From the NCBI GenBank assembly GCA_029856435.1, contig JAHQXB010000048.1, positions 1-17,212 of the forward strand: a stretch of 17,212 nt of DNA. The letters run 5' to 3'. A model generated the notes under the pieces. It saw only the letters and a program-made list of their open reading frames with translations, had not been told where the DNA came from and searched no databases. Made by a program: the position numbers and the translations under genes. The first letter of the stretch is position 1, and each line of letters begins with the position of its first letter. The DNA is from Candidatus Jordarchaeia archaeon (lineage in GTDB: Archaea > Asgardarchaeota > Jordiarchaeia > Jordiarchaeales > Jordiarchaeaceae). Shown one piece after another: positions 113 through 16,993 of this stretch.

Positions 113-1162
113 TTACTGGTATTGTTCTTTGAAGTAGGGTATTATTTTTTTACCCCATAATTCGTACTGGTTCTTTCTATGTTTTGTGGGGACAAGAAGT
201 ATGCACAGAAAGTAGTGGTTGCCCGCCTTATAGAGCTTATCTATTCTCTCAATGCACCTATCCGGTGTACCATAAATGAAGCGTTCCTCAATGGCTTCAA
301 AAGGAATTTTCTTGGCGAACTCGATAGCTCTCTTTATTGATTCTGGGCTGTAAGTGAATTTTTTCAGGCTAAACTCTTCGGAGATTTCTATTCCTACTTT
401 TTTAAGTTTGTCAGGCCAAAAGGCTGAGAGTAACTTTGCCGGCAATTCTATGGGGTCCGGCCCTTCTTCCTCCTTTTTGGAAACATTTGCATAAATGGTG
501 TTTGCTCTCACAATTTTTTCAGGGTCTCTTCCAAACCTCGTAGCGTAGTTCTCTATTTCCTTCCAGAATCTTTTATACTCCTCGGGAGTTAGGGCCTGCG
601 GTAACCACCCATCTCCCAGCTCTGCAGTTATTCTCCTTGTTCTGGGCGAGTTGGCTGCAATCCAAAAGGGGGGATGTGGTTGCTGGAAGGGGAGAGGAAG
701 GAGGAAGGCATTTTTTAATGTGTAGAATTCACCATCATAATTGATGGTGCCGCCTGTAAAGAATTTTTTGAGTATTCTTATGGTCTCTTCCATAATGCTG
801 ACTGGCTTATCCCACCTAATTCCAAAAGGTTTAATGGATGGAGACTCACCCGCACCTATACCCACTATAAGTCTTCCATTTGAAATGTGGTCTACTGTAA
901 CGATGTTCTGAGCTAAAACTGCGGGATGCCTTCTAGCCGCATCAACCACACTTATTCCCAGATTTAGCTTCGTCCTAAAAGATATGGCGGCAAGCGTTGG
1001 GAAGGGTTCCATTGCGTCCCAAACCTTTATTCCGGCTCCCACCAAATGGTCCCCTAACCATACTGAGTCGAAACCATTATTATTTGCATAGGAAACGGCG
1101 TCATAAATGTCGGAAAGTGGAGCATTTGGCAGGTGAGCACCAAACTGGGGAACTGGAGGCAT
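113..1162 (-). CDS. LLM-class (luciferase-like) flavin/F420-dependent oxidoreductase, Rv2951c/Mer-like
   Basis: Motifs GFDSVWLGDHL, DAARRHPAVLAQ, SNGRLIVGIGAGE, WIAANSP, GDGWLP. The ORF track starts at 1198, but that ATG lies only ~7 nt from the TATA-like TTTATAAA (1205-1212). The ATG at 1162 (MPPVPQFG) has a GAAGGGTG RBS and is preferred. Confidence 0.9.
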   Translation of the reverse strand: MPPVPQFGAHLPNAPLSDIYDAVSYANNNGFDSVWLGDHLVGAGIKVWDAMEPFPTLAAISFRTKLNLGISVVDAARRHPAVLAQNIVTVDHISNGRLIVGIGAGESPSIKPFGIRWDKPVSIMEETIRILKKFFTGGTINYDGEFYTLKNAFLLPLPFQQPHPPFWIAANSPRTRRITAELGDGWLPQALTPEEYKRFWKEIENYATRFGRDPEKIVRANTIYANVSKKEEEGPDPIELPAKLLSAFWPDKLKKVGIEISEEFSLKKFTYSPESIKRAIEFAKKIPFEAIEERFIYGTPDRCIERIDKLYKAGNHYFLCILLVPTKHRKNQYELWGKKIIPYFKEQYQ

Positions 1163-1204
1163 AAATACACCCTTCAATATTTTACCAAAATACGACATCT
1201 TCTC

Positions 1205-1244
1205 TTTATAAATTTATAGCTTATTTTTTAGGCTATCTAAGCCT
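1205..1244 (-). promoter_or_regulatory. TATA-like promoter of the first LLM gene, with palindrome TATAAATTTATA (1207-1218) and inverted repeat AGGCT-N5-AGCCT (1230-1244)
   Basis: Read directly from the sequence; position fits an archaeal promoter ~45 nt upstream of the ATG at 1162. Confidence 0.5.
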
Positions 1245-1298
1245 GATTTACACAAAATTTAGTTTGCTTTAGAGGGGAGATTTAATGGAATTTGAGTG

Positions 1299-2333
1299 TC
1301 ATAATTCTTTAAAGTAGGGTATTATTTTGTCTCGATAGATTTCGAAAACCTTGTTAGGATCTGGTCCTCTGTTGAGTAGGGCAAAGTGTTTAACCCCTGC
1401 CTTGATAAATGCTTCTATCTGATCCATAACTTGGTCCAAAGTGCCTATAATATTAAAATCCTGTAATATTCGATCCGGAACTTTGTTGAGGTATTGAAGC
1501 AGCTTCATAAGATCCTCATTTGAGGGGGTCAATTTTTGGATAGCTAGCTCTTTGGGCACCTCAATATTATACTCTTCCTTCAATTTATCTGGAAATAGTA
1601 AGTGTCCACCCTTCATAAATTCGACTCTCTTAAACGCTGTTTCAAAATCGTCAGCTACGGCGGTCATACAATTGTAGCACACATCAATCTCCTCCATACT
1701 CCTGCCCGCCCTTTTTGCACCCTCCTCCACATCCTTTATGTGTTTGGCAATTAGGCTGGGACTCTCATAGAAGGGGAACCATCCTTCAGCCATCTCGCCG
1801 GCAAGCCTTCTTGAAACTGGCCCGTTAGCCGCAACATAAATTGGAATTGTTTCCTGAACTGGTTTAAGCTGCAGAAGAGCATTCTTCATTTTGAAGAATT
1901 CACCGTCATAGTTAACTCTGTCTTCCTTCCAGAGAAGACGCATAACCTCAATAAATTCTCTCAATTTAGAAACTGGTTTTTGTGCATCAATATTGAACAT
2001 TTTGAGATTCATAGCTTCGCCCGCACCAATACCCAGCATGGCCCTACCATTAGAAACCACGTCAAGAGTCGCTAGAGTATGCGCCATAACCGCGGGGTGC
2101 CTACGGTGAGGGTCAGAAACACCAGTGCAAAGAGTAAGACGGGAAGTGTTTAAAGCCATAACCGTTAAAAACACAAAGGCATCATAAACTCTGCCTTCAG
2201 GTGGAATGGTAGTAAGATGATCAGCATACCACAAACTCTCAAAGCCACACTGCTCCGCCTTCTTGGCGCCCTCAACTGCCAACTCCAACCTATATGTAGG
2301 AACCGGGATTGAGAAACCAAATTTAATATCCAT
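1299..2333 (-). CDS. LLM-class flavin/F420-dependent oxidoreductase (tandem paralog)
   Basis: GFESLWYADHL, GVSDPHRRHPAVMAH, SNGRAMLGIGAGE, YVAANGP, AEGWFP; GGTGA RBS upstream of the ATG; TTTTTATA box at 2385-2392. Confidence 0.92.
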   Translation of the reverse strand: MDIKFGFSIPVPTYRLELAVEGAKKAEQCGFESLWYADHLTTIPPEGRVYDAFVFLTVMALNTSRLTLCTGVSDPHRRHPAVMAHTLATLDVVSNGRAMLGIGAGEAMNLKMFNIDAQKPVSKLREFIEVMRLLWKEDRVNYDGEFFKMKNALLQLKPVQETIPIYVAANGPVSRRLAGEMAEGWFPFYESPSLIAKHIKDVEEGAKRAGRSMEEIDVCYNCMTAVADDFETAFKRVEFMKGGHLLFPDKLKEEYNIEVPKELAIQKLTPSNEDLMKLLQYLNKVPDRILQDFNIIGTLDQVMDQIEAFIKAGVKHFALLNRGPDPNKVFEIYRDKIIPYFKEL

Positions 2334-2453
2334 AACAGATCACCAGTAAAAACATGAGGACTATTACACTCTCACAATGTCCTGTATAAAAATTTTTAGA
2401 TGAGGTCTTTAAACACTCATCATTGCCCCCTCAAATAATAAGTGATATTGTTT

Positions 2454-3281
2454 CTAGCCTTGTTTTTTCTTTCCTTTACCCATAAGGAAATCCAACACTG
2501 CTTGAACTAATTGGGCGCCGTCACCAATTTTCCTCAAAATTAGTCCCGAGGCGTATTCTCGAAATATTTTTATGTGATCTTCGGGTGGAGGACTGATTTT
2601 TTCAAGCCTAGAGGCTATTTTTAGGTCCCAAGGAACACTCTTTTTGATGTCTTCTACTTCGACTCCAGGAAAACAGCCTTTAAGATATATTTCTTTTGTC
2701 TTCTCATCGAATCCAAAAACCCCTTGACTGCTTATTAACAGGCTGGGCCCAGTTCCGGGAGGAAAACCTGCCTTTTCTCTGGAATCGCCACCAGTCAGAT
2801 AGCCAGGAGAGGATAAGTAATCCAGTTTCTCAACAAATTCTCCACCCCTCAAAGTGATTACGGTTCTCTTGGCGTATCCAATAAAATCCGTCGCGCCTCC
2901 AGCTCCGGGCAATCTCGTTTTGGGATTATCATAGTCTCCAAGCACCGTGGAGTTTATGTTGCCAAATTTGTCCACTTGCGCTGCTCCCAAGAAACAAACA
3001 TCCACGTAGCCCTTAAACAATATTGTTGTGAATGTGTCCGCCAAATCACATGCATAGCTGAAGCCCTTAGTGGTGGTGCTTTCGGCAATGTGAAAAGCAG
3101 ACTTATAGGGCAAAAAGTCTATGATTCCCGCCTCAGTCATAAGAATGCATTTAGGTGCATGAGTCATCTTAGCCACAACGCCCGCAATTATTGGAATTCC
3201 CTGACCCACTATAACACGATCACCATTCCTAATTTCCTTAGATGCGAGGGAAACCATCAACTCCAAAACGGAATAATCCAA
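2454..3281 (-). CDS. Family I CoA-transferase beta subunit (GctB-like)
   Basis: VIVGQGIP, MTEAG (catalytic Glu position), DVCFLGAAQVDKFGNINST, RLPGAGGA, YLSSPG; GGGGGTGA RBS before the TTG. Confidence 0.92.
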   Translation of the reverse strand: MDYSVLELMVSLASKEIRNGDRVIVGQGIPIIAGVVAKMTHAPKCILMTEAGIIDFLPYKSAFHIAESTTTKGFSYACDLADTFTTILFKGYVDVCFLGAAQVDKFGNINSTVLGDYDNPKTRLPGAGGATDFIGYAKRTVITLRGGEFVEKLDYLSSPGYLTGGDSREKAGFPPGTGPSLLISSQGVFGFDEKTKEIYLKGCFPGVEVEDIKKSVPWDLKIASRLEKISPPPEDHIKIFREYASGLILRKIGDGAQLVQAVLDFLMGKGKKKQG

Positions 3282-3333
3282 CTACACTTCACCCCCATTC
3301 AAACATTGCTCCAGGTTCATAGAAGGAAATTTT

Positions 3334-4311
3334 CTAATCTATTTGCGTATGTTTTCTAAATGATGAACCGTAATTTACGGGCACGCTGTAGTAGGGTTTC
3401 GCCCTTAACCTCTCCAAGTATTCTTTGCCGAATCTCTCAATGTAGTGTGCTATGTACTGTTCTCTATTCTCTAAATTGTAGACCCATTCTGTAAGGAAGT
3501 GCTGAATACTCTCACTGCTCCAGTTCATTGCCCCAAGCATGGCTCTAAAAAGGAAGTCCAGGTCATAGTACCCATGCACTTCAGAAGGATGGGCACCCCA
3601 CGGCTCTACAACAACAGCGTTTACCCGAAAACCGGGAATGATGGTATGATGAGGGCTGCGATTCACTGTTTCGCGATCCACCAGTTCCTCGGCTGAAACG
3701 ACGATTTTTTTGCAGGCCAAGCTTGCCCACTTGGCAGTACCTAGAGCACCCCAAAGCTGAGCATTACCCTCAGCGTCCACTCTTTGAACATGAACAATGG
3801 CCACATCGGGATTAGCCGCTGGAACGAGGAGCACCTTTTTCCCAGTAAAGGGGCATTCCACTTCTTTGAACTTGTTTTCTCCCATAAAGCTCCTTCTCCG
3901 AAAAATATCGGTATATTTGAGGCCTATGGGAACCTGCATAAAGGTCTGCCCCATGGCTCCCGCCATCAACATGGCCAAAATTGAGTAGTTCGAGTAATCC
4001 TCTACTTCAATTCTCTTCTCCTTTATAGCCCTCTCAAACTCAGTTCCATAATTGGCTCCACCTAACCTGAAACTGAACGCAGTAACAATTCGTTTAAGAC
4101 ATCCACCAGCAACCAGCAAATCGGCCTCATCTATAAGAGAGGTGCTCCACAGAGTCAATTCCCTCTTTTTCTGCCTAATGATTTCGTGGATAAGGGCGAA
4201 AGGAGAAGACTGAAGAAAATTTGCAATGCAGACCTGCTCACCATCACTTATAAATTTCTTAACAGCCTCAGAGGCATCCATCAACTTATCTGAAACTTCC
4301 GACTCAACCAT
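3334..4311 (-). CDS. Family I CoA-transferase alpha subunit (GctA-like)
   Basis: AVKKFISDGE, ALIHEIIRQ, DLLVAGG, PDVAIVHVQRVDAEGNAQLWG, PWGAHPS, GYYDLD; lies 52 nt upstream of the beta subunit on the same strand. Confidence 0.92.
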   Translation of the reverse strand: MVESEVSDKLMDASEAVKKFISDGEQVCIANFLQSSPFALIHEIIRQKKRELTLWSTSLIDEADLLVAGGCLKRIVTAFSFRLGGANYGTEFERAIKEKRIEVEDYSNYSILAMLMAGAMGQTFMQVPIGLKYTDIFRRRSFMGENKFKEVECPFTGKKVLLVPAANPDVAIVHVQRVDAEGNAQLWGALGTAKWASLACKKIVVSAEELVDRETVNRSPHHTIIPGFRVNAVVVEPWGAHPSEVHGYYDLDFLFRAMLGAMNWSSESIQHFLTEWVYNLENREQYIAHYIERFGKEYLERLRAKPYYSVPVNYGSSFRKHTQID

Positions 4312-5327: not shown

Positions 5328-5989
5328 AACGCCACCCTTCCCCCTTTTTCTAAACCATTAAAAATATTGAAAAAGAAAACTACCTGCAGGAGAATAGAAA
5401 TAGCAACCAAAAACTTCAGATATACGTTCAACTTATGGAGATTAATCTGGCTTTTACCAAATAGAAGAGAAGATATTCGTCTTTCAGCAATTAAGTTCTA
5501 ATTATTCTCCTCCTAACAGCAGCTAAAATCATATAGATCTTTTTTGGACACTGAAACACCTTACAATATTTCCCAAAGACAGAGACAAAATCAAGATTCA
5601 AGAATGAAGAAGGAAAGAAATCTGAAAAAAATAAAAACCAAGTAAGAATGTGTGCTGGTGGAGCCTTATGATTTTACACTTATAGGGTGGATAACTCCAG
5701 CTCGAGAGGAATAACAGAGTAGCGAGTAGCTCTCCTCTATACCTCAGAAAGAAGTCAAATTTTGGGAAGGCTAGAGCTGGTGCAGCTATAACCTATTTTT
5801 GTTTCTCAATTGTGCTTGCAGAGGATTCTATTTGCTGTTTTTATTGTTTTTGTGTGAATTTTTCGTTTCAAAGGTTGCCGCTGTCCCCGCTATTTGGTTT
5901 TTGTAATTGTTTTAATGTTGTAGATAGATTTATAGCTTGTTTAAAAATACTGTCCCTTAGTTTTAAATTTGGCTCCGTTGGTGGGATTT

Positions 5990-6910
5990 ATGGCGGGTTT
6001 GCTTCCAAGAGAACTCCTAGAGCATCCAGAGAGGCTTAAACCTAAGGATATCGAGGATGGGCTTGTAAGTGTTGGGTACTTGCCGAATCAGAAGATAGTC
6101 ACTACACTTTTTCTCGCCTTTCAGCTTGACAAGCCAATTCTGGTGGAGGGCCCTGCGGGCTGCGGTAAAACTTATTTGGGTGTTTGCATCGCGAAGTTGT
6201 TTGGCTTCCCGTTAATTAGGCTTCAGTGTTATGAGGGGATTCTCCCCGAACAATCAATTTATGAGTGGAACTATCATAAGCAGCTTCTCAGAATTCAGAT
6301 GAACCACCTTAAGGGTGATGATGGAGGCGAAAAATCGATATTTTCTGAGGAGTACCTTTTGGAGCGCCCATTATTAACTGCCTTGAAGTCCCCTGAGGCC
6401 GTGCTTCTCATAGATGAGATTGATAAGGCCGACGAGCAATTTGAAGCTTTTCTCCTTGAACTTCTCGGCGAGCGACAAATCACGATACCGGAATTGGGAA
6501 CTGTGAGGGCTCCCCCGAACCAGAAACTCATTACTGTACTGACATCTAATAGTTCGAGGGAGTTGTCTGAGCCTTTGAAAAGGCGGTGCTTACACCTCTA
6601 CCTAGACTATCCTCCAAGGGATTTGGAAAAAAGGATTATACTTCTCAACTGTCCCCAGTTGTATGATGAATTTGTGGATAATATATTGAGTTTTGTTGAG
6701 AATCTGAGAAGCATGAGGCTGCAAAAGGTTCCCTCCATTGCGGAGTCAATAGACTTCGCCAGATCCCTAATAGCCATTGGAAAAAACGAGTTGGATCAAG
6801 ATACTGTCAATTCTCTCCTGTCCACTCTTCTTAAGGTTAAAAGTGACATAGACCTAGTGGCCCGGAAAGGTATAGAGAACCTTCTCGACTTAAACAGCGA
6901 AAAAGGATAA
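5990..6910 (+). CDS. MoxR-family AAA+ ATPase, CoxD-like
   Basis: Walker A EGPAGCGKT, RLQCYEG, Walker B LLIDEIDKADEQFEA, ITIPELGT, LTSN, LKRRCL. ORF track starts at 5969; ATG 5990 preferred (RBS, TATA at 5961-5968). Confidence 0.93.
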   Translation: MAGLLPRELLEHPERLKPKDIEDGLVSVGYLPNQKIVTTLFLAFQLDKPILVEGPAGCGKTYLGVCIAKLFGFPLIRLQCYEGILPEQSIYEWNYHKQLLRIQMNHLKGDDGGEKSIFSEEYLLERPLLTALKSPEAVLLIDEIDKADEQFEAFLLELLGERQITIPELGTVRAPPNQKLITVLTSNSSRELSEPLKRRCLHLYLDYPPRDLEKRIILLNCPQLYDEFVDNILSFVENLRSMRLQKVPSIAESIDFARSLIAIGKNELDQDTVNSLLSTLLKVKSDIDLVARKGIENLLDLNSEKG

Positions 6911-6917
6911 ATAAAGG

Positions 6918-8423
6918 TTGCAGGAAATGATTGAGGGCTTTGTGAGGCTTCTCCGTGAAAGAAACATTCGTGTAGGATTAGCAGAGACCATAGACGCCTG
7001 CAAAGCCTTCACACTGCTAGACATAGATAAGGAAGTAATGAGGGAAGGCTTAGCCGCCTGCTTAGTAAAGGAGGAAGCAGACCGGCCGGATTTTGACCGT
7101 ATTTTCGACCTCTATTTCTGTAACATGATGGAGGAAAAAAAGAAAACCCCACAAACATCCACCCAAATAGGAGACTGGGAATTTTCCGAAAGGGAGGAGC
7201 GGAAACAGAAAATCGAGAGACCATCACAGAAGGAAGCACGACAAACCGAGCCTCAGCAGCGTGACCAGCAGGAGGGACAAAGACGGGAAGTGTTGTCAAG
7301 GTTTGGAGGCATAAAAGGAATAGGTAGGGCGATTGATGAGAACGATTTGGAGGGAGCCGCTGACCAACTTGTGGAACGAATTCTCAGCAAAACTAGGGAT
7401 CCGGACACCTTTGCTAATATGCTTAAGAACTTTATAGATTATATGAAGCTTTACTCTGGCTGGGCTCTGGATGAAACCGCTGATTTTAGGGACTATTTAG
7501 AGAGAATAGAAAAAGTTCTGGGCTTGGCGCAGAGAAAGTTTCTGGAGTTATTTAGGGAAGAGTATCCCCTAGAAGAGTTGATTTCTAAGCTGGTGAAACT
7601 GGATTACCAAAACATTGAGGAGCTGGACTTTAACAAGTATGTGGGCGACTTGGTTTTTCTTGTGAGTAACGTGGATAAAGTTGAGAGAACCATAAAGAAA
7701 CTGGCAAAACAGCTAGCATCCAAGCTCTCAAGAAGGGAGAAACTAGCAGATAGGGGTAAAATAAATATTCGCAAGTCCATTCGCAGGTCCCTGGAGTATG
7801 GGGGAGTAATGGTTAAGTTGGATTACAAGATGAGAAAGATTCAAAGGCCAGAAATTGTCCTGCTCTGTGATGTTTCTGGAAGTTGTGAATGGATATCCAG
7901 CTTTTTCATAACTTTAATGTTGGGAATTAAAAAGGCCTTCAGCGAAGTTAGAGGCTACATTTTCACAGACCACTGCTGGGCGGTAACCAAGGCACTGGAC
8001 ACCGGAATGGTTGAAAGACTATTCCAGGAGATTAGCCACTGGTGGGATGTTTACCGGGGAGGTGGAAGCAGCAACATGGAAACAGCCTTCGAGGACTTTC
8101 TCAAAAAAACAGAGGGAACCATAACCAAGAAAACCACGGTAATCATTCTCAGCGATTGCAGAGACTATCTTGGGAGAAGAGAACTCTACGGAGACTTAAG
8201 GGGATACCCTCTCTCAGCCCAAAAAATAGCCAAACTCGCCAAAATTTCAAAAAGACTCATAATTCTAAATCCCGAGGATCCCAGGTTCTGGAACACTGGC
8301 GACTCCGTAGTAGAATATTACATTCAGGCAGGGGCGGAATGCTACCCTGTTAAAAACCTTCAAGAACTGGCCAACATGGTGATTTTAGCTGCAAAAAAAG
8401 ATATAAATCCATACCCTAGATAA
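6918..8423 (+). CDS. VWA domain protein, CoxE-like
   Basis: N-terminal GFVRLLRERNIRVGLAETIDA, RGKINIRKSIRRSLEYGG, MIDAS DVSGS, VIILSD, LNPE; begins 7 nt after the MoxR stop (alternative ATG at 6927). Confidence 0.92.
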   Translation: MQEMIEGFVRLLRERNIRVGLAETIDACKAFTLLDIDKEVMREGLAACLVKEEADRPDFDRIFDLYFCNMMEEKKKTPQTSTQIGDWEFSEREERKQKIERPSQKEARQTEPQQRDQQEGQRREVLSRFGGIKGIGRAIDENDLEGAADQLVERILSKTRDPDTFANMLKNFIDYMKLYSGWALDETADFRDYLERIEKVLGLAQRKFLELFREEYPLEELISKLVKLDYQNIEELDFNKYVGDLVFLVSNVDKVERTIKKLAKQLASKLSRREKLADRGKINIRKSIRRSLEYGGVMVKLDYKMRKIQRPEIVLLCDVSGSCEWISSFFITLMLGIKKAFSEVRGYIFTDHCWAVTKALDTGMVERLFQEISHWWDVYRGGGSSNMETAFEDFLKKTEGTITKKTTVIILSDCRDYLGRRELYGDLRGYPLSAQKIAKLAKISKRLIILNPEDPRFWNTGDSVVEYYIQAGAECYPVKNLQELANMVILAAKKDINPYPR

Positions 8424-8980: not shown

Positions 8981-9091
8981 CCCCAGAAAACACGTAGAAC
9001 ATACAACCTTCTTTTTCAAATATTTTTTCACGTTTGAATTTGTTTCATTGTGGCTAAAAATAGTTTTCTAAATTTGTTTGGGAGCCAAGTT

Positions 9092-10212
9092 ATGCCTATA
9101 GAAGTTTTAACCAAGCCTAGGAGTATACTTCTTAAGAGGAATTATGCTGATGGTTGGTTTCTGGAAAAATACGCTATGAACATTTACCGGGGATGCCAAC
9201 ATGCCTGTGAATATTGCGATGGAAGGTCTGAAAGGTACTATTTGGATTTGGACATTGGAAGAAAGATTTACATAAAGGTTAACGCCCCCGAACTTGCGAA
9301 AAAAGAACTGAGAAACAAGGGATTGTGGCTGTAGGTGGAGGAATAGGGGATTCATACCAGCCCCCGGAAAAAAGGTATGAGGTAACCCGCAGGGTGCTTA
9401 AGGTAATAAAGGAATTAAATTTCCCCATTTTCATTCTAACCAAGTCCAGCCTAGTGGAGAGAGACATTGACCTAATCGAGGAAATAAACGGGCAAAACCT
9501 AGCCATAGTAGCCTTCTCCATCACCAGCCTTGAGGACGAAGTTTGGAAAACTTGGGAGCCCCGAGCCTCCCCACCAGAAGAAAGACTTAGTAATCGGAAA
9601 ATTTTCAAAAGGAATTCCAACAGGAGTGGTGATAATGCCCATCCTACCCTTCATTTCGGACAGCGCAGAATCCATTGAGAAACTCGTTTCCAGAGCCAAA
9701 ATGGAGGGAGCCAGCTTCATCGTTGCAGGAGGCTTAACGCTAAGAGACCGCAAGAAAAAATACTACTACTAAAAACTGCAGGAAAAATATCCAGAACTAA
9801 TCCCAAAATACAACCAGATATGCAGCGAACAAGGATACCACACAAACGAAGAATACAACCAAAAAATAAATAGCATTGTTCTACAAGCATGCAGAAAGTA
9901 TGAAATCCCCCTAAGAATCCCCCACAAACTTTTCCATGGAAAAATCCCAATCAAAGACGAGTGCTCACACGTACTCCAACAAATAGCATACCTCCTAGAC
10001 ATAACAGGAAAAAGAGGAAGCGCCTACCGAAAAGCCGCAAACCAAATCTATAAAACCACACATGACATAGCCAAACTCACAAAAGAAGGAAAAATAACCG
10101 AAATCTTCGCAGTAGGAGAAAAAATCGGAAAAATAATTCAAGAAATAATGAAAAAGGAGAAAGCCAATACTACCAAAAATTAATGAAATTAACCTATAGA
10201 GTTTCTCATTAA
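9092..10212 (+). pseudogene. Disrupted SplB/Rv2578c-like radical SAM protein with C-terminal PolX-type 8-kDa HhH domain
   Basis: CxxxCxxC (GCQHACEYC), GDSYQP, ILTKS, ERDIDL, EPRASPPEER, GIPTGVVIMPILPFISD, then AYRKAA...VGEKIGKIIQE. Continuity needs frame changes at ~9317 and ~9589, read-through of TAA 9770-9772, and probably a shift at ~10155 (giving KGESQYYQKL). Confidence 0.85.
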
Positions 10213-12387: not shown

Positions 12388-12729
12388 TTGGATTTCTTGT
12401 ATTCTCTGATTTGGTATGGTTACTTGATTGGTACCCTATTTTTTGCTGTTTCTGCTTACTTTTTATTGCGTTTCCGCGCGAAAAGGGGGGCAGCTATTTT
12501 TCATCTTTTCGCTGGTTATGTTTTGTATGGCTTGGCTGTGGTTGCAACTGCTTATGGGTACTATCAGCATGTGGAATATTTTGGTCTTCTTGTTATGGAT
12601 CTGATTCCTTTACAGTACATTGTAAGTCAGGTGACGCATATTTTCTATTTTGAGGAGCTTACCGGTATTCTTCTTCAATACTTTGTTTCTTATATTGCTC
12701 GTTTATTTTTAAGTGGAATATCTCTATGA
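12388..12729 (+). CDS. N-terminal part of a split multi-TM membrane protein
   Basis: Hydrophobic helices; T/G wobble bias supports this frame up to the stop; its TGA overlaps the next ATG (ATGATGA at 12726-12732). Confidence 0.7.
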   Translation: MDFLYSLIWYGYLIGTLFFAVSAYFLLRFRAKRGAAIFHLFAGYVLYGLAVVATAYGYYQHVEYFGLLVMDLIPLQYIVSQVTHIFYFEELTGILLQYFVSYIARLFLSGISL

Positions 12730-13163
12730 TGATTGTGGCTTTGGCGGACTTTTTCCTGTTTGCATTCACTGTTGAGACTTTTGCCCAGAAACGAAGATAC
12801 CTAGTGCCTTTTGGAATTGCTTCTGCTGCTATTATTGTGTTCCTTACATTTTTCTGGGATCCGCTGATTAACTGGGCCGCTGTGATGATTCTGAGCCTTG
12901 TGACATACTCTATCCTTGCTTACTTGTCTATTGGAGCTATGAGGTTGGCTAAGATGAGGAGTTACAAGTACGGTTTTGGATTAATAGCTTCGTCAAACAT
13001 ATTCCTCTCTCTGTTCTTCGTCTTTATGTCGGTGGATAGACTCACTGGAAGATGGACGCCCTTCCTATTCCTTGCATGGACGATATTGTTTATCGCATCG
13101 CTGCTCACATTTGTGGGGTACACTTTGCCTCCATGGTTCAAGAAACTTCTTGGAGAACCCTAA
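12726..13163 (+). CDS. C-terminal part of a split multi-TM (about 7 TM in total) membrane protein
   Basis: Four to five hydrophobic helices ending in GYTLPPWFKKLLG; continuous with the upstream ORF if one base is restored at ~12725. Confidence 0.75.
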   Translation: MMIVALADFFLFAFTVETFAQKRRYLVPFGIASAAIIVFLTFFWDPLINWAAVMILSLVTYSILAYLSIGAMRLAKMRSYKYGFGLIASSNIFLSLFFVFMSVDRLTGRWTPFLFLAWTILFIASLLTFVGYTLPPWFKKLLGEP

Positions 13164-13447
13164 CCACTATTTTTTATTTTATATGTGTGCATTCAGGAAT
13201 AAATTATTCATAGTTGGTTGGTGACAACTGCTGTGTCGACTTCAGATTGGAGTTGTTTTAAAAATTAAAATAGATATGGGGAGCATTTTTCAGAAGAGAT
13301 TGTATAGTATTAATCTTTTTGGCCAGAAGGAGCCTTGATAATGCTTATTTTCCTTTAAAGCCCAAACTTTTTTTCAGTGGAATTACTTCCCCAGACGGCA
13401 AGCCTGAAAGTGCCTAATAACTTTCATAGTAGTTTTGGGTGTTTGTT

Positions 13448-14467
13448 TTAGGTTGTGAACATTGCGGATGGTCGTAGTTCTTGTTCCATCACTCCTATTA
13501 GGGCCATGGACAGGTTTGCGCTTGCTATCATTTTTGATGGTTCGCCTAGGGGTCCTGCTGCTTTTTCGTAGTAGAATAGGGGTAGTATGGCGTCGAATTT
13601 GCCTTTTTGTCTGGTTAGAAGTATTAGTTGGTTGAATTCTAGGAATTTTTGTGTTATTACGTTTCTGATGTATGATTGGGGGGCCTGAACGAATGCTGCT
13701 TTTATTATTTCTGCGTTGTATATGACTTGTTGGGCGGCGTCGATTGTTTTGAGGTAGTCTCCTTCTTTGAATGCTTTCTCCATTACTGGCACGTAGTAGT
13801 TTGTTGTTTTTTGGAGTAGGAATTCCTCTTCGGGGTTGTTGACGTGTTCTGGCTGAACTGTGTTGAGGGTGTATTCTGCGGTTTGAATCATTCTGAAGGC
13901 GAAGTCCTTCATGGATTTCTTTAAATCTTCGGCTTTTTTTCCCTTCTCGTCGATGGCCTCAACAATTTTGGTGAAGTCTATGAAAACATTGCAGAGCTCT
14001 ATTGCTAGGCAGGCTTGGTAGAATAGTTCTGAGTCTACTTCCTCTCTAGCTCTTAGAATATTGACACTGGTTTCAGCGTCCCTCAAGTAGGTGTATGCGA
14101 ATAGTAACCATTCGAATCCTTGGTAGGACTTTATTTTTTCGTAGGTTTGGCCTAGTTGCATTTTGGCCGAGCTTAATTTCTCCTCAGCTTCCTCAATTTT
14201 GCTTTCCAAATCTTTTTTGACGCGACCTTCAATTTTGGCCCTTAAAACATTTAGTTGGACAATGTTTGTCAACAAACCAGATATTGAGAGTAAATTGTAT
14301 CCCTGTTCCAAGAGATATTCAATGGTTTGTTTATTTTTCAAAATGTCCATGTATAGCTCAATGGTTCTGTGAGAAAAATTCGCTTGTACGAGGAGGCTGA
14401 CTTCGTTGAACAGCTTTTCGTGCTTCTTCCTCTTTTCTTCAAGGAAGGGTTTTATCAGGCTATCCAT
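13448..14467 (-). CDS. Hypothetical all-alpha-helical protein
   Basis: 339-aa ORF with amphipathic and coiled-coil-like segments (KKDLESKIEEAEEKLSSAK) and strong codon bias; GGGAGAG RBS-like sequence upstream. Confidence 0.8.
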   Translation of the reverse strand: MDSLIKPFLEEKRKKHEKLFNEVSLLVQANFSHRTIELYMDILKNKQTIEYLLEQGYNLLSISGLLTNIVQLNVLRAKIEGRVKKDLESKIEEAEEKLSSAKMQLGQTYEKIKSYQGFEWLLFAYTYLRDAETSVNILRAREEVDSELFYQACLAIELCNVFIDFTKIVEAIDEKGKKAEDLKKSMKDFAFRMIQTAEYTLNTVQPEHVNNPEEEFLLQKTTNYYVPVMEKAFKEGDYLKTIDAAQQVIYNAEIIKAAFVQAPQSYIRNVITQKFLEFNQLILLTRQKGKFDAILPLFYYEKAAGPLGEPSKMIASANLSMALIGVMEQELRPSAMFTT

Positions 14468-14618
14468 AAGGGGAGAGTAGAACTCCTGTTTTCTTCCTTT
14501 AATTTCTGTTCCCTCACCATACTTTTGTAAGAGAATCCATGCAAAAAGGGGTTTTTAAAACTTTACTCCAAAAAAACCATAAACCCATATTTGGGTTAGG
14601 TTTTGGATTGTTCTACTG

Positions 14619-15638
14619 CTAATCTTCCGCTTCATCTCTCCTAGTTGGTTGATTGTCCTCTCCGCTGACTTCTATTGCGGAGAGTGTTTTGATTCTTTTG
14701 GCTACCTTCTGGACAAGGGTTTCTAAACTAGTTAATAATTCTTCGTCCTTGGGAATTTTCTTCTCCCTCTTAGGGGTGGCCTGTTTTTTCTGCTTCAAGG
14801 CTACCAGTGGCTTTTGTGGGGGAAGAATGGCGCTGGGCTCCACTATTGGTTCAATGGAGGCTTTCATTTTTAGTACATCAACTAAGCCATCTATTATCCG
14901 GTCAATTAGAATCTCAAAGAGGGCTCTTGAGCCCTCATTCATAATGGCTCTCAGAAATAGGAAAAATTCGCTATTCCCTATTCTTCTGAACCGCCACTCA
15001 TCTGTTCCAGCTTCATGTTTGATAGAGAGCTCCAGTTTGAGATTCACCGTGTTGGGTAAGCTTTTCAGAATTTTTAAGCATGCGTAGCGGGTGCTGAAAT
15101 CCGGTTTGGCTTCTTTTTCCCAGCTAGAAGCTATTCCTCCCTCCAGAGAGATGAGGTAGACATTCTGGAGGATAATATTTATCATGCGTCCTTCAGAAAG
15201 CCAGTTAATCTCTTTACTTATGTAGGATTGAAGCGCCCTAGGTACGGTTTTAATCTTAATAATTTTTTCTATTTTCTTTTTCAATTTAGCGTCCAGATCC
15301 AGAGTACCCTTCAAATCCTTTTCGAAATCTATCTCTTCCTCAAGTAAGCTGATTAATTGGTCCAATTTTTGGTACGTGAGTTCCCTGTTATCAGAGGCAT
15401 CGTGAATACAGACCCAGAGACCTTTACCTGTTTCTTTAAGTAAAAGTGAGTACAGTTCGAGTTCAATTTCACGGTGTATTTGCTCCCCACCAAAAATCTG
15501 GGAAAGAAACTTGTTTAAGGCCATCAACATGCCCGAAAAAAGAGTGAAATTAATACCCAAACCATCATCATACGCTACGTGTCCCATCCCATCTTGCGTG
15601 ACAATAAGTAGAGCATGAATCAAAGGAGAAAACCCCAC
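14619..15638 (-). CDS. Putative longin-domain protein (probably two longin-like repeats plus a Pro/Lys-rich tail)
   Basis: N-terminal IHALLIVTQDG...LFSGMLMALNKFLSQIFG...LLLKET..LWVCIHD..D...L.QL matches the beta-beta-alpha-beta-beta-beta-alpha pattern of archaeal longins; a second similar block starts at QNVYLISLEGG. Fold call is by eye. Confidence 0.65.
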   Translation of the reverse strand: MGFSPLIHALLIVTQDGMGHVAYDDGLGINFTLFSGMLMALNKFLSQIFGGEQIHREIELELYSLLLKETGKGLWVCIHDASDNRELTYQKLDQLISLLEEEIDFEKDLKGTLDLDAKLKKKIEKIIKIKTVPRALQSYISKEINWLSEGRMINIILQNVYLISLEGGIASSWEKEAKPDFSTRYACLKILKSLPNTVNLKLELSIKHEAGTDEWRFRRIGNSEFFLFLRAIMNEGSRALFEILIDRIIDGLVDVLKMKASIEPIVEPSAILPPQKPLVALKQKKQATPKREKKIPKDEELLTSLETLVQKVAKRIKTLSAIEVSGEDNQPTRRDEAED

Positions 15639-15682
15639 AAAACTAAATTTGTACGATGAAAATTCTTAAGAGCCAAAATCTA

Positions 15683-15705
15683 TTTATTTTTAGCGGAAAA
15701 ATAAA
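15683..15705. promoter_or_regulatory. Inverted repeat TTTATTTTT-AGCGG-AAAAATAAA in the divergent promoter between the longin and GTPase genes
   Basis: Perfect 9-bp arms read directly, centred in the ~100-bp intergenic region. Confidence 0.45.
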
Positions 15706-15742
15706 ATTATAGCAGTAGGCACTGTGAGTGAGGTTAACCCTC

Positions 15743-16288
15743 TTGAAAGAAAAGTACATATTTAAGGTGCTCTTACTTGGTAACGGCGGGGTGGGAAAAA
15801 CCACCATAAAACAGAGATACACTGAAGGATTGGTTGACCCCATATACCGCACAACCATAGGGGTTGATTTTGGACTCATTGACATAAAACACTCCCAACA
15901 GGAAATCTGGCTGCATTTCTGGGACATCGGAGGCCAGGACCAGTTTCGCGAAATTTCCGGCTCATTTTATAAGGGAGCTAAGGCCGCTGTATTAATGTTT
16001 GATGTTACCCAGCCTAAGACTCTTGAGGGCATCAATGAATGGTTAAAAATAATGAAGCAAGAAAACGTCGACGGTATTCCCAAAATAATAGTTGGAAATA
16101 AAATCGACATAAGGAAAATAGATAAAGGACATGTATCCACAGAACAAGCGAAAAAGTTTTGCGAAAAACTGGGAATAGGATATTTTGAAACCTCAGCCCT
16201 ACGCGGTGACGGCACAAAAGAACTACTCAAAGAACTGGTAAAAGTAATTGCAACCAAGTACCTGAACCCAAGTGAGAAAGCATCCTAG
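15743..16288 (+). CDS. Rab-like small GTPase (Ras superfamily)
   Basis: G1 GNGGVGKTT, G2/RabF1 TIGVDF, G3 WDIGGQDQF, FYKGA, MFDVT, G4 GNKID, G5 ETSAL; no C-terminal Cys. ORF track starts at 15728; TTG 15743 after GTGAGG preferred. Confidence 0.95.
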   Translation: MKEKYIFKVLLLGNGGVGKTTIKQRYTEGLVDPIYRTTIGVDFGLIDIKHSQQEIWLHFWDIGGQDQFREISGSFYKGAKAAVLMFDVTQPKTLEGINEWLKIMKQENVDGIPKIIVGNKIDIRKIDKGHVSTEQAKKFCEKLGIGYFETSALRGDGTKELLKELVKVIATKYLNPSEKAS

Positions 16289-16345
16289 AGCAAATAGACG
16301 TCTGACCATTAACTCCCAAAATAGTATTTTTAGAGGTAGGTATTC

Positions 16346-16993
16346 TTGGAGATAAACCCTGAACTGGCTTTCAAAAATGTTTTTGCACAGTGTGGGAGTG
16401 GCAGGCCAACGGGAGGAGTAGTAGTCACCAACTCGGGAAAAATTCTTTACCAATATAATTTCGACGACAACGATGTATTAAAGGATTCAATCAGCCTTTT
16501 CCCCCAATTGAAGGTGGGCGACTTTCTCTCCACGGGAAACTACCTTATTCTACGCGTGTCAAGCGGCATCACAGTCATCCTAAAATTTGCAAGCGAACAA
16601 AAGGTAGCCCTAGCCCAACTCTCACTCGTCGGCCGAGTTGCAGCCTTCGCAGGCTGGTTTGACAGTCTAGACGAAAAAGACTACAACATCAACTCATTGA
16701 AAGTAAACTATCCCGAAAATCGAAAAATCTGCGACCTCCTAGGATGTGATTCCACAACCGCCATAGGAAAAATACTCGAATTCATAGTTGAAAAATCAGA
16801 TGCCACAAAAAAAGAAGATTTAATCAAGTTGGGATTGAAGGAAGCAACCATCGAAGAATCCCTAGAAAAACTAGTAAAAGCAGGAATATTAGAGGAGGAG
16901 CAAGGCAAATACAGAATACGCGCCGGTCTCATAACAATTACACTTATGCAGCCCGCCGTTTGTAACAGTTTCAAAATAAGTGAACTTAAATAG
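16346..16993 (+). CDS. Putative roadblock/profilin-like N-terminal domain fused to a C-terminal winged helix
   Basis: GAGGT RBS. N-terminal alpha-beta-beta-alpha-beta-beta-beta-alpha pattern (GGVVVTNSGKILYQ); C-terminal KILEFIVEK...TIEESLEKLVKAGILEEEQGKYRI is typical of a wHTH. Confidence 0.7.
   Translation: MEINPELAFKNVFAQCGSGRPTGGVVVTNSGKILYQYNFDDNDVLKDSISLFPQLKVGDFLSTGNYLILRVSSGITVILKFASEQKVALAQLSLVGRVAAFAGWFDSLDEKDYNINSLKVNYPENRKICDLLGCDSTTAIGKILEFIVEKSDATKKEDLIKLGLKEATIEESLEKLVKAGILEEEQGKYRIRAGLITITLMQPAVCNSFKISELK

Follow-up and report, generated by a model that had tools for sequence, protein, structure and literature searches.

A candidate three-gene small-GTPase module with longin and roadblock-winged-helix partners in one genus of Jordarchaeia-class Asgard archaea

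An operon encoding a LAMTOR1-like Roadblock protein, a Rab-like GTPase and a DENN-domain protein has been predicted in Asgard archaea and reported in most of their lineages (Liu et al., bioRxiv 10.1101/2020.10.19.343400). In actinobacteria, the conservon (CvnA-D; mycobacterial MfpB-E) brings together a small GTPase, a roadblock GTPase-activating protein (GAP), a helix-turn-helix (HTH)-containing guanine nucleotide exchange factor (GEF) and a membrane sensor (PMC9769811, PMC11343762, PMC13621833), of which MfpD is the roadblock GAP (PMC9769811) and MfpC, a DUF742 protein, is the HTH-containing GEF (PMC11343762). Here we analysed a 17,212-nucleotide stretch of DNA from a Candidatus Jordarchaeia archaeon (hereafter the window), which is the whole of contig C38 in a genome of 3.54 Mb (181 contigs, 97.8% complete). 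It carries a gene for a Rab-like small GTPase, a divergently oriented gene for a longin-domain protein (LON), and, downstream of the GTPase, a gene for a protein with a predicted roadblock fold and a winged helix (RBL-wH). We consider it somewhat better than an even chance (roughly 0.55) that these form a three-gene small-GTPase module of a single genus of the class Jordarchaeia, comprising a longin exchange or docking platform, a roadblock GAP or reader, and a winged-helix adaptor.

We then compared the locus with the described systems. As in the operon of Liu et al., an Asgard Rab-like (not Rag) GTPase is encoded with a Roadblock-superfamily protein in a proposed GTPase-regulator set, and the third protein has a longin-type N-terminal module; in contrast to that operon, the roadblock is here fused to a winged helix, the arrangement is divergent, and the family is confined to one genus. 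The Pfam DENN model gave 0 matches in the genome of the window and in 151 Asgard genomes, but the control was also silent, so that this model cannot see Asgard DENN proteins. The uDENN module has the longin fold. With the conservon, the locus shares a small GTPase that is encoded with a roadblock protein and an HTH-type domain, whereas the conservon GTPase belongs to the MglA family and is not Rab-like, its roadblock and HTH domains are separate proteins and not fused, its sensor is a histidine kinase, and it includes no longin protein. Domain-library searches of the six products of the locus yielded no kinase or DUF742 match. The locus belongs to neither the conservon nor the Liu et al. operon, with the comparison to the latter limited by the silent DENN model. 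The earlier note on this DNA, made from its sequence, had known of no characterised locus with such an arrangement; this does not hold, as the conservon is characterised and the Asgard operon of Liu et al. is predicted.

MglA-MglB of Myxococcus and Thermus likewise places a Ras-superfamily GTPase beside a roadblock-fold protein, and MglB chains (6hjm, 6izw, 3t1r) were among the structural matches of RBL-wH. Unlike MglA-MglB, however, the GTPase here is Rab-like with a canonical DxxGQ, and RBL-wH has no sequence similarity to Robl_LC7 and carries an additional winged helix. In a 2014 census, MglB coupling was recorded for 404 MglA-family GTPases and for 0/121 Rup/Ras-like ones (PMC4316618). The locus also resembles the longin-based Rab GEFs (TRAPP core Bet5/Trs23, Mon1-Ccz1) in that a longin-domain gene adjoins a Rab-like GTPase gene, and Bet5 is the best solved relative of LON, while MON1 is among the neighbours of the ESM Atlas model of a LON orthologue. 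In contrast to these GEFs, LON is a single gene and not a paralogue heterodimer or multisubunit complex, one longin domain is demonstrable in it, unlike in the tri-longin GEFs (Mon1-Ccz1, BLOC-3, CPLANE), and all of its matches to longin-based Rab GEF families fall below the family thresholds.

The RBL-wH/GTPase/LON trio was intact and syntenic in 6/6 genomes of the window's GTDB genus that offered contiguity, and it was found on at least eight metagenome contigs. Loci with the intact trio include those of Candidatus Freyarchaeum deiterrae, a 146-kb JGI contig and a Jordarchaeum contig. Homologues of the window genes are labelled Candidatus Freyarchaeum deiterrae, Candidatus Jordarchaeum or Jordarchaeaceae, and the complete F. 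deiterrae genome (G038 = CP147778) has the same GTDB genus as the window, which upholds the Asgard origin given in the earlier note. In this genus, an acyl-CoA dehydrogenase gene comes after RBL-wH.

To define the spacer between the divergent genes, the starts of LON (TTG 15623) and of the GTPase (TTG 15743) were set by the alignment of eight orthologous loci. The spacer measures 119 bp between these starts and 89 bp between the longest open reading frames (ORFs), in agreement with the ~100-bp divergent promoter that had been claimed to be shared with a longin-like gene. About 45 bp of it (about 15657-15703) are nearly invariant in the eight loci, the proteins of which are 64-77% identical. 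This block contains the palindrome TCTTAAGA at 15664-15671, kept as TCTTAAGA/CTTAAG in 7/8 loci, and the TATA-like CTATTTATTTTT at 15680-15691; it was also read as TATA-like CTATTTATT and AGCGGAAAA, then a GAGGT ribosome-binding site, and a site of the GAGGT type precedes the GTPase start. Downstream, a gap of 57 nt separates the GTPase stop (16288) from the RBL-wH start (16346), exactly as had been described. Across the loci, this spacer varies from 47 to 71 nt, with a ribosome-binding site as its sole conserved element and with no conserved promoter. The layout of these spacers suggests that LON is co-regulated with a GTPase/RBL-wH bicistron, and the strong conservation of the bidirectional promoter region therefore makes a functional link within the trio likely.

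The GTPase scored 135 bits (E 1.8e-39) with Pfam Ras, for which the cut-off is 21.6 bits. Among solved structures, its best 60 sequences were all Rab or Sec4 (E 1.6e-33 to 1.7e-29), with Rab30 as the top relative (1.6e-33) and Rab3, Rab8, Sec4, Rab1 and Rab11 also represented, which upholds its earlier description as Rab-like. When the translation was aligned to Rab30 and Rab3A, all of the nucleotide-binding motifs were found to be intact (G1 GNGGVGKT, switch I TIGVDF, G3 WDIGGQ, G4 NKID and G5 ETSA), including the catalytic switch II Gln of DxxGQ, and the RabF1 motif IGVDF was found as well. The C-terminal tail, ending in ATKYLNPSEKAS, contains no Cys and thus none of the prenylation motifs of eukaryotic Rabs, and the protein is therefore Rab-like and not a Rab proper. 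Orthologues with 74-96% identity were confined to the window's genus.

We next examined LON, which is encoded by one gene per genome in this genus. Its homologues are 65-72% identical within Jordarchaeia/Freyarchaeia, and genome searches recovered it at 43-47% identity in the sister family and at 24-27% in two further Asgard families. Alignment of the diverse homologues resolved two conserved domains (~100 and ~120 aa) joined by helices, followed by a tail of ~75 aa that is present only in the genus. Intu_longin_1, the first longin domain of INTU/CCZ1/HPS4, matched LON below threshold (E 0.009, 16.7 bits against a cut-off of 23.7; 5/13 members); LON lay below the gathering cut-off of every Pfam longin family and was absent from the Fuz_longin_1 matches of its own genome at E <= 1. 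When a diverse profile of domain 1 was run against all ORFs of this genome, the matches that it retrieved (E 3e-10, 4e-8 and 4e-7) included the N-terminal domain of a longin-GTPase fusion. The next iteration added both proteins that exceed the Fuz_longin_1 cut-off (on C154 at 1.7e-14 and on C3 at 2e-10), and the iterated profile pulled in no roadblock proteins of the genome except one borderline case. Furthermore, hhalign of domain 1 with the Fuz_longin_1-type family of the same genome, from which LON had been left out, gave 98.9% (E 1e-17, 91 columns), and the best solved relative of the diverse LON profile was the TRAPP longin subunit Bet5 (E 0.013). By these sequence comparisons, domain 1 is a longin domain. 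Four longin domains of the same family are fused to GTPases in this genome.

Domain 2 behaved differently: hhalign with longin and roadblock profiles stayed below 5%, profiles of RBL-wH gave no signal, and the comparison of domains 1 and 2 with each other yielded 0.3%. The earlier description of LON as a tandem longin is thus half shown, with a second longin domain being possible. The AlphaFold2 (AF2) secondary structure of aa 1-94 follows the order beta-beta-alpha-beta-beta-beta-alpha without an N-terminal helix, but at a predicted local distance difference test score (pLDDT) of 35-54. In the ESM Atlas, the model of the F. deiterrae LON orthologue (P0006) has a pLDDT of 0.64; its named neighbours are MON1 (TM 0.33/0.28, residues 32-254), a roadblock, a bithoraxoid-related roadblock family, V4R and Rag-like proteins, all of which have TM <0.5 by both measures except for the bithoraxoid-related cluster (0.37/0.50), and no DENN or folliculin cluster is among them. 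An exhaustive search of 1.8 billion representatives returned only eight relatives of LON (255-292 aa), none carrying a Pfam family, and another LON profile retrieved nothing useful from the solved-structure sequences. As a separate observation, a LON domain-1-like module also occurs in other Asgard proteins, combined with a C-terminal HTH_34 winged helix, TPR repeats or an N-terminal membrane domain (loci L024 3-1481, L028 2026-3501 and L025 50-940); these distant domains gave no Pfam longin match.

For RBL-wH, an AF2 model was built with 18 homologues (pLDDT 68 overall, ~80 in both domains). Its first domain has the element order H5-15, E23-28, E33-37, H42-49, E60-63, E66-70, E75-80 and H84-106 (alpha-beta-beta-alpha-beta-beta-beta-alpha), and a low-confidence linker (aa 102-126) precedes the winged helix. 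Foldseek matched domain 1 best to a Lokiarchaeal Roadblock-Longin protein (8yql/8yqk; roadblock domain, E 1e-4, probability 1.0), and MK-D1 Roadblock3 (9jue), MglB and LAMTOR2 were likewise matched at probability 1.0. VIA, which is independent of Foldseek, gave 8yqk_A at Z 10.2 over 106 residues (3.1 Å), followed by the C-terminal domain of RagC (8.9), the MK-D1 roadblock (8.4), MglC (8.3) and MglB (8.2). A roadblock fold of domain 1 is thus supported at the level of the predicted structure, in line with the roadblock-like/wHTH reading of the earlier note. Robl_LC7 gave no Pfam match on RBL-wH at E <= 1, and the RBL-wH profile found nothing useful among the solved-structure sequences. Invariant columns amount to 53/101 in the roadblock domain, 11/26 in the linker and 12/69 in the winged helix; the linker, conserved yet modelled as disordered, resembles a binding motif that may fold on its partner. 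The full-length family is restricted to the window's genus, and elsewhere just weak winged-helix matches were obtained.

The winged helix raises the alternative that RBL-wH is a DNA-binding transcription factor set by the GTPase, which would bind the palindrome in the spacer between two TATA-like boxes and regulate the trio and perhaps other genes. VIA matched aa ~120-200 to winged helices at Z 7.7-8.9 (rmsd, root-mean-square deviation, 1.2-3.5 Å; 57-75 residues), among them the DNA-binding TtgV, ArsR, MarR and Fur (Z 7.7-8.8); Pfam and NCBIfam gave weak matches to TrmB, HTH_27 and Lrs14 at aa 142-196; the palindrome lies in the invariant promoter block; and a link between Group 3 MglA GTPases and receiver-wHTH proteins is known from bacteria (PMC4316618). 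However, protein-binding winged helices (RPC62, TFE-alpha) score equally well, and among the folded parts of RBL-wH the winged helix shows the lowest conservation. Furthermore, it is acidic in 18/18 members (net -1 to -8, pI 4.4-6.1), with a net negative presumed recognition helix in 15/18, which does not fit the basic recognition helix or wing suited to DNA contact. DNA binding by RBL-wH is therefore doubtful, and this acidity points to a protein adaptor more than to an operator-binding regulator, so that we regard the transcription factor as unlikely, if worth keeping in view. It is also conceivable, although we hold it to be improbable, that only the GTPase and RBL-wH are partners, and that LON is an older, independent protein that serves other GTPases or another process, the pair having been inserted beside its gene. 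LON of the sister family has as direct neighbours endonuclease V and the acyl-CoA dehydrogenase gene seen after RBL-wH in the genus, but no GTPase nearby, and therefore the GTPase/RBL-wH pair was either inserted next to LON or lost there; LON is thus probably older than the pair, and can work without this GTPase. In a further Asgard family, LON has no GTPase neighbour either, the GTPase has no orthologue in the sister family, and with ~24 longin-family proteins (iterated profile search) and 22 Ras-family matches (Pfam search) in the genome, the adjacency could have arisen by chance. An independent LON is, however, at odds with the strong constraint on the shared spacer and with the ~75-aa tail of LON, the gain of which is confined to the pair-bearing genus. 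In addition, 4/5 loci of LON homologues from a distant Asgard family (24% identity) have a Ras-family GTPase at a distance of 1.5 kb, and the link between LON and a GTPase thus recurs with a different GTPase. Besides the GTPase-free LON of the sister family, several other results weigh against the three-gene module. Beyond the genus, no GTPase orthologue was found, the best matches being 33-39% identical and among many paralogues, nor were any RBL-wH orthologues. The roadblock assignment comes from one AF2 model of moderate confidence; GAF domains match domain 1 nearly as well as roadblocks do (VIA Z 8-9, up to 9.2), and hhalign of this domain with ten Robl_LC7 proteins of the same genome gave ~1.2%. 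For LON, the AF2 model from 13 close homologues reached a pLDDT of 35.6.

The earlier note had combined five genes into a candidate complete switch, in which a seven-transmembrane (7-TM) sensor and a helical scaffold (HEL) would join LON and RBL-wH as the putative GEF and GAP of the GTPase. The window, L005 and L015 have the five genes side by side, with HEL adjoining LON in L016 as well; in at least three genomes, HEL and the 7-TM gene keep a tail-to-tail arrangement, and the F. deiterrae HEL gene is still within 11 kb of LON. The helical protein is real and conserved, with orthologues 63-94% identical, although no family and no solved relative was found for it. It is nevertheless not a stable member of the locus, as ~11 kb of other genes lie between LON and HEL in F. 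deiterrae, where, as on two other contigs (including L003), a 1400-aa protein, a CDC48_N protein and others adjoin LON in its place. As for the 7-TM protein, L005, L015 and the 98%-identical G082 each encode its orthologue in one uninterrupted ORF, ~267-285 codons long from stop to stop, with seven hydropathy peaks; the window gene, in contrast, is broken into two ORFs in different frames by a one-base difference at a T5 run (12706-12710), and one extra T restores the alignment with the orthologues. An independent Logan contig from the probable source run (X1, depth 72) carries the same frameshift, which is therefore not one assembler's slip. The trio is intact beside this broken gene, the neighbourhood in F. 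deiterrae lacks the 7-TM orthologue, two genomes of the genus have no 7-TM orthologue near the trio and carry 7-TM paralogues only elsewhere, and none of four 7-TM paralogue loci contains a GTPase, longin, roadblock, HEL or LON gene. The synteny across Asgard genomes that the earlier note had proposed as a check thus bore out the trio within the genus and left HEL and the 7-TM gene variable. We therefore consider the five-part system very unlikely; HEL and the 7-TM gene adjoin the module in some lineages without belonging to it.

Returning to the three-gene module, we propose the following mechanism. Longin subunits of TRAPP and Mon1-Ccz1 are known as exchange platforms for Rabs, and the roadblock domains of MglB and Rag/Ragulator engage GTPase switch regions. 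The bidirectional promoter region would drive two units, LON on one side and the GTPase with RBL-wH on the other. The lipid-free Rab-like GTPase would cycle between GDP and GTP, as its intact catalytic motifs, including the switch II Gln, suggest. The longin domain of LON may dock on the nucleotide-free or GDP form and act as an exchange or docking platform, by analogy with TRAPP Bet5/Trs23 and Mon1-Ccz1, whereas RBL-wH, probably dimeric, may engage the switch regions through its roadblock domain as a GAP or a reader of the GTP state, by analogy with MglB, MfpD and Rag/Ragulator. The GEF role of LON and the GAP role of RBL-wH are thus putative assignments. Finally, the conserved linker and the acidic winged helix would relay the state of the GTPase to another protein and not to DNA. 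A stronger form, for which we see rather little likelihood, is a self-contained archaeal Rab-type switch with LON as the GEF, the roadblock as the GAP or reader, and the linker and winged helix signalling downstream. If true, it would represent a minimal, ancestor-like form of the eukaryotic longin-GEF/roadblock-scaffold logic in three adjacent genes.

Table 1. Coordinates of the module, its parts and its variable neighbours in the window
Feature	Position	Strand	Basis or remark
7-TM membrane gene (variable neighbour)	12388-13163	+	Two overlapping ORFs in different frames: 12388-12729 and 12726-13163
HEL, 339 aa (variable neighbour)	13448-14467	-	Conserved, function unknown, no recognisable family
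LON, longin-domain protein, 334 aa from TTG 15623	14619-15623	-	ORF extends to GTG 15638 (339 aa)
LON domain 1, aa 1-100			Longin
LON domain 2, aa ~125-258			Conserved alpha/beta, fold unknown
LON tail, aa 259-334			Basic/amphipathic; present in the window's genus only
Divergent promoter region	15624-15742	.	Alignment of eight orthologous loci
Rab-like small GTPase, 181 aa from TTG 15743	15743-16288	+	Pfam Ras; longest ORF from 15728
RBL-wH, 215 aa	16346-16993	+	AF2 fold: roadblock domain and winged helix
RBL-wH roadblock-fold domain, aa 1-107	16346-16666	+	AF2, Foldseek, VIA
RBL-wH linker, aa 108-127			Probably disordered, conserved; AF2 and family alignment
RBL-wH acidic winged helix, aa 128-196	16727-16933	+	AF2, VIA

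Some further features of the LON flank and of related neighbourhoods were observed. The protein beside LON in HEL's place is 1380-1408 aa long with a weak GCS2 match, and together with the CDC48_N-domain protein it occupies 9295-14873 in L001/L002 and 8291-13869 in L003; F. deiterrae and the JGI contig thus differ from the window by an insertion or deletion of ~11 kb at the LON flank within one genus. In hot-spring relatives (runs X2, X4 and X6), a different sequence takes the place of 74-76 bases of the HEL-LON spacer (window 14524-14599), with the flanking genes collinear. In the distant Asgard family with a Ras-family GTPase near LON, the GTPase, a 268-aa protein and the LON homologue form a divergent, conserved cluster (L010 5337-8588; also L011, L013 and L014). 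The 268-aa protein, encoded between the other two, has a CPNCG zinc-ribbon-like start and two repeated winged-helix-like units, and was rejected by sequence comparison as a relative of RBL-wH or LON. In another family, a 273-aa neighbour of LON shows a weak longin-like alignment at its N-terminus. A second neighbourhood of such a kind exists in the window's own genome at G000:C3:25955-29227 (L052 2956-6249), where a 157-aa longin-family protein, above the Pfam Fuz_longin_1 cut-off, is followed 1.5 kb on by two tandem Rab-like GTPase genes. At G000:C5:18386-21012, four or five Robl_LC7 genes surround a weak Ras-family (MglA-like) match, as a separate GTPase-roadblock cluster.

Elsewhere in the window, a radical-SAM gene at 9050-9678 (+) is split across frames and is the second broken gene of the contig: 9050-9334 covers positions 1-26 of Pfam Radical_SAM, 9325-9678 in the other frame covers positions 58-139, and an A6 run lies at 9299-9304. 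At 5969-8423 (+), the genes for a MoxR-type AAA ATPase (AAA_5) and, immediately behind it, a VWA CoxE-like protein form a common chaperone-like pair, with two genes for luciferase-like monooxygenases and two for CoA-transferase subunits upstream, at 113-4311. Rfam matched 0 families in the window.

Asgard genomes encode small GTPases, roadblock proteins and longin proteins by the dozen. In the cultured strain MK-D1, operons generally do not join small-GTPase genes to those for roadblock or longin proteins, and its GTPases thus cannot be paired with their regulators from the genome (Tran et al., PMC10933270); the practical value of a linked trio therefore lies here. Its weight is limited by the restriction to a single genus and by the comparable GTPase-regulator neighbourhoods that were already described or predicted. 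Nevertheless, the trio offers one defined Rab-like GTPase and two defined candidate partners that can be assayed together, and it could show whether GEF or GAP activity towards Rab-like switches is already present in the longin and roadblock domains of archaea.

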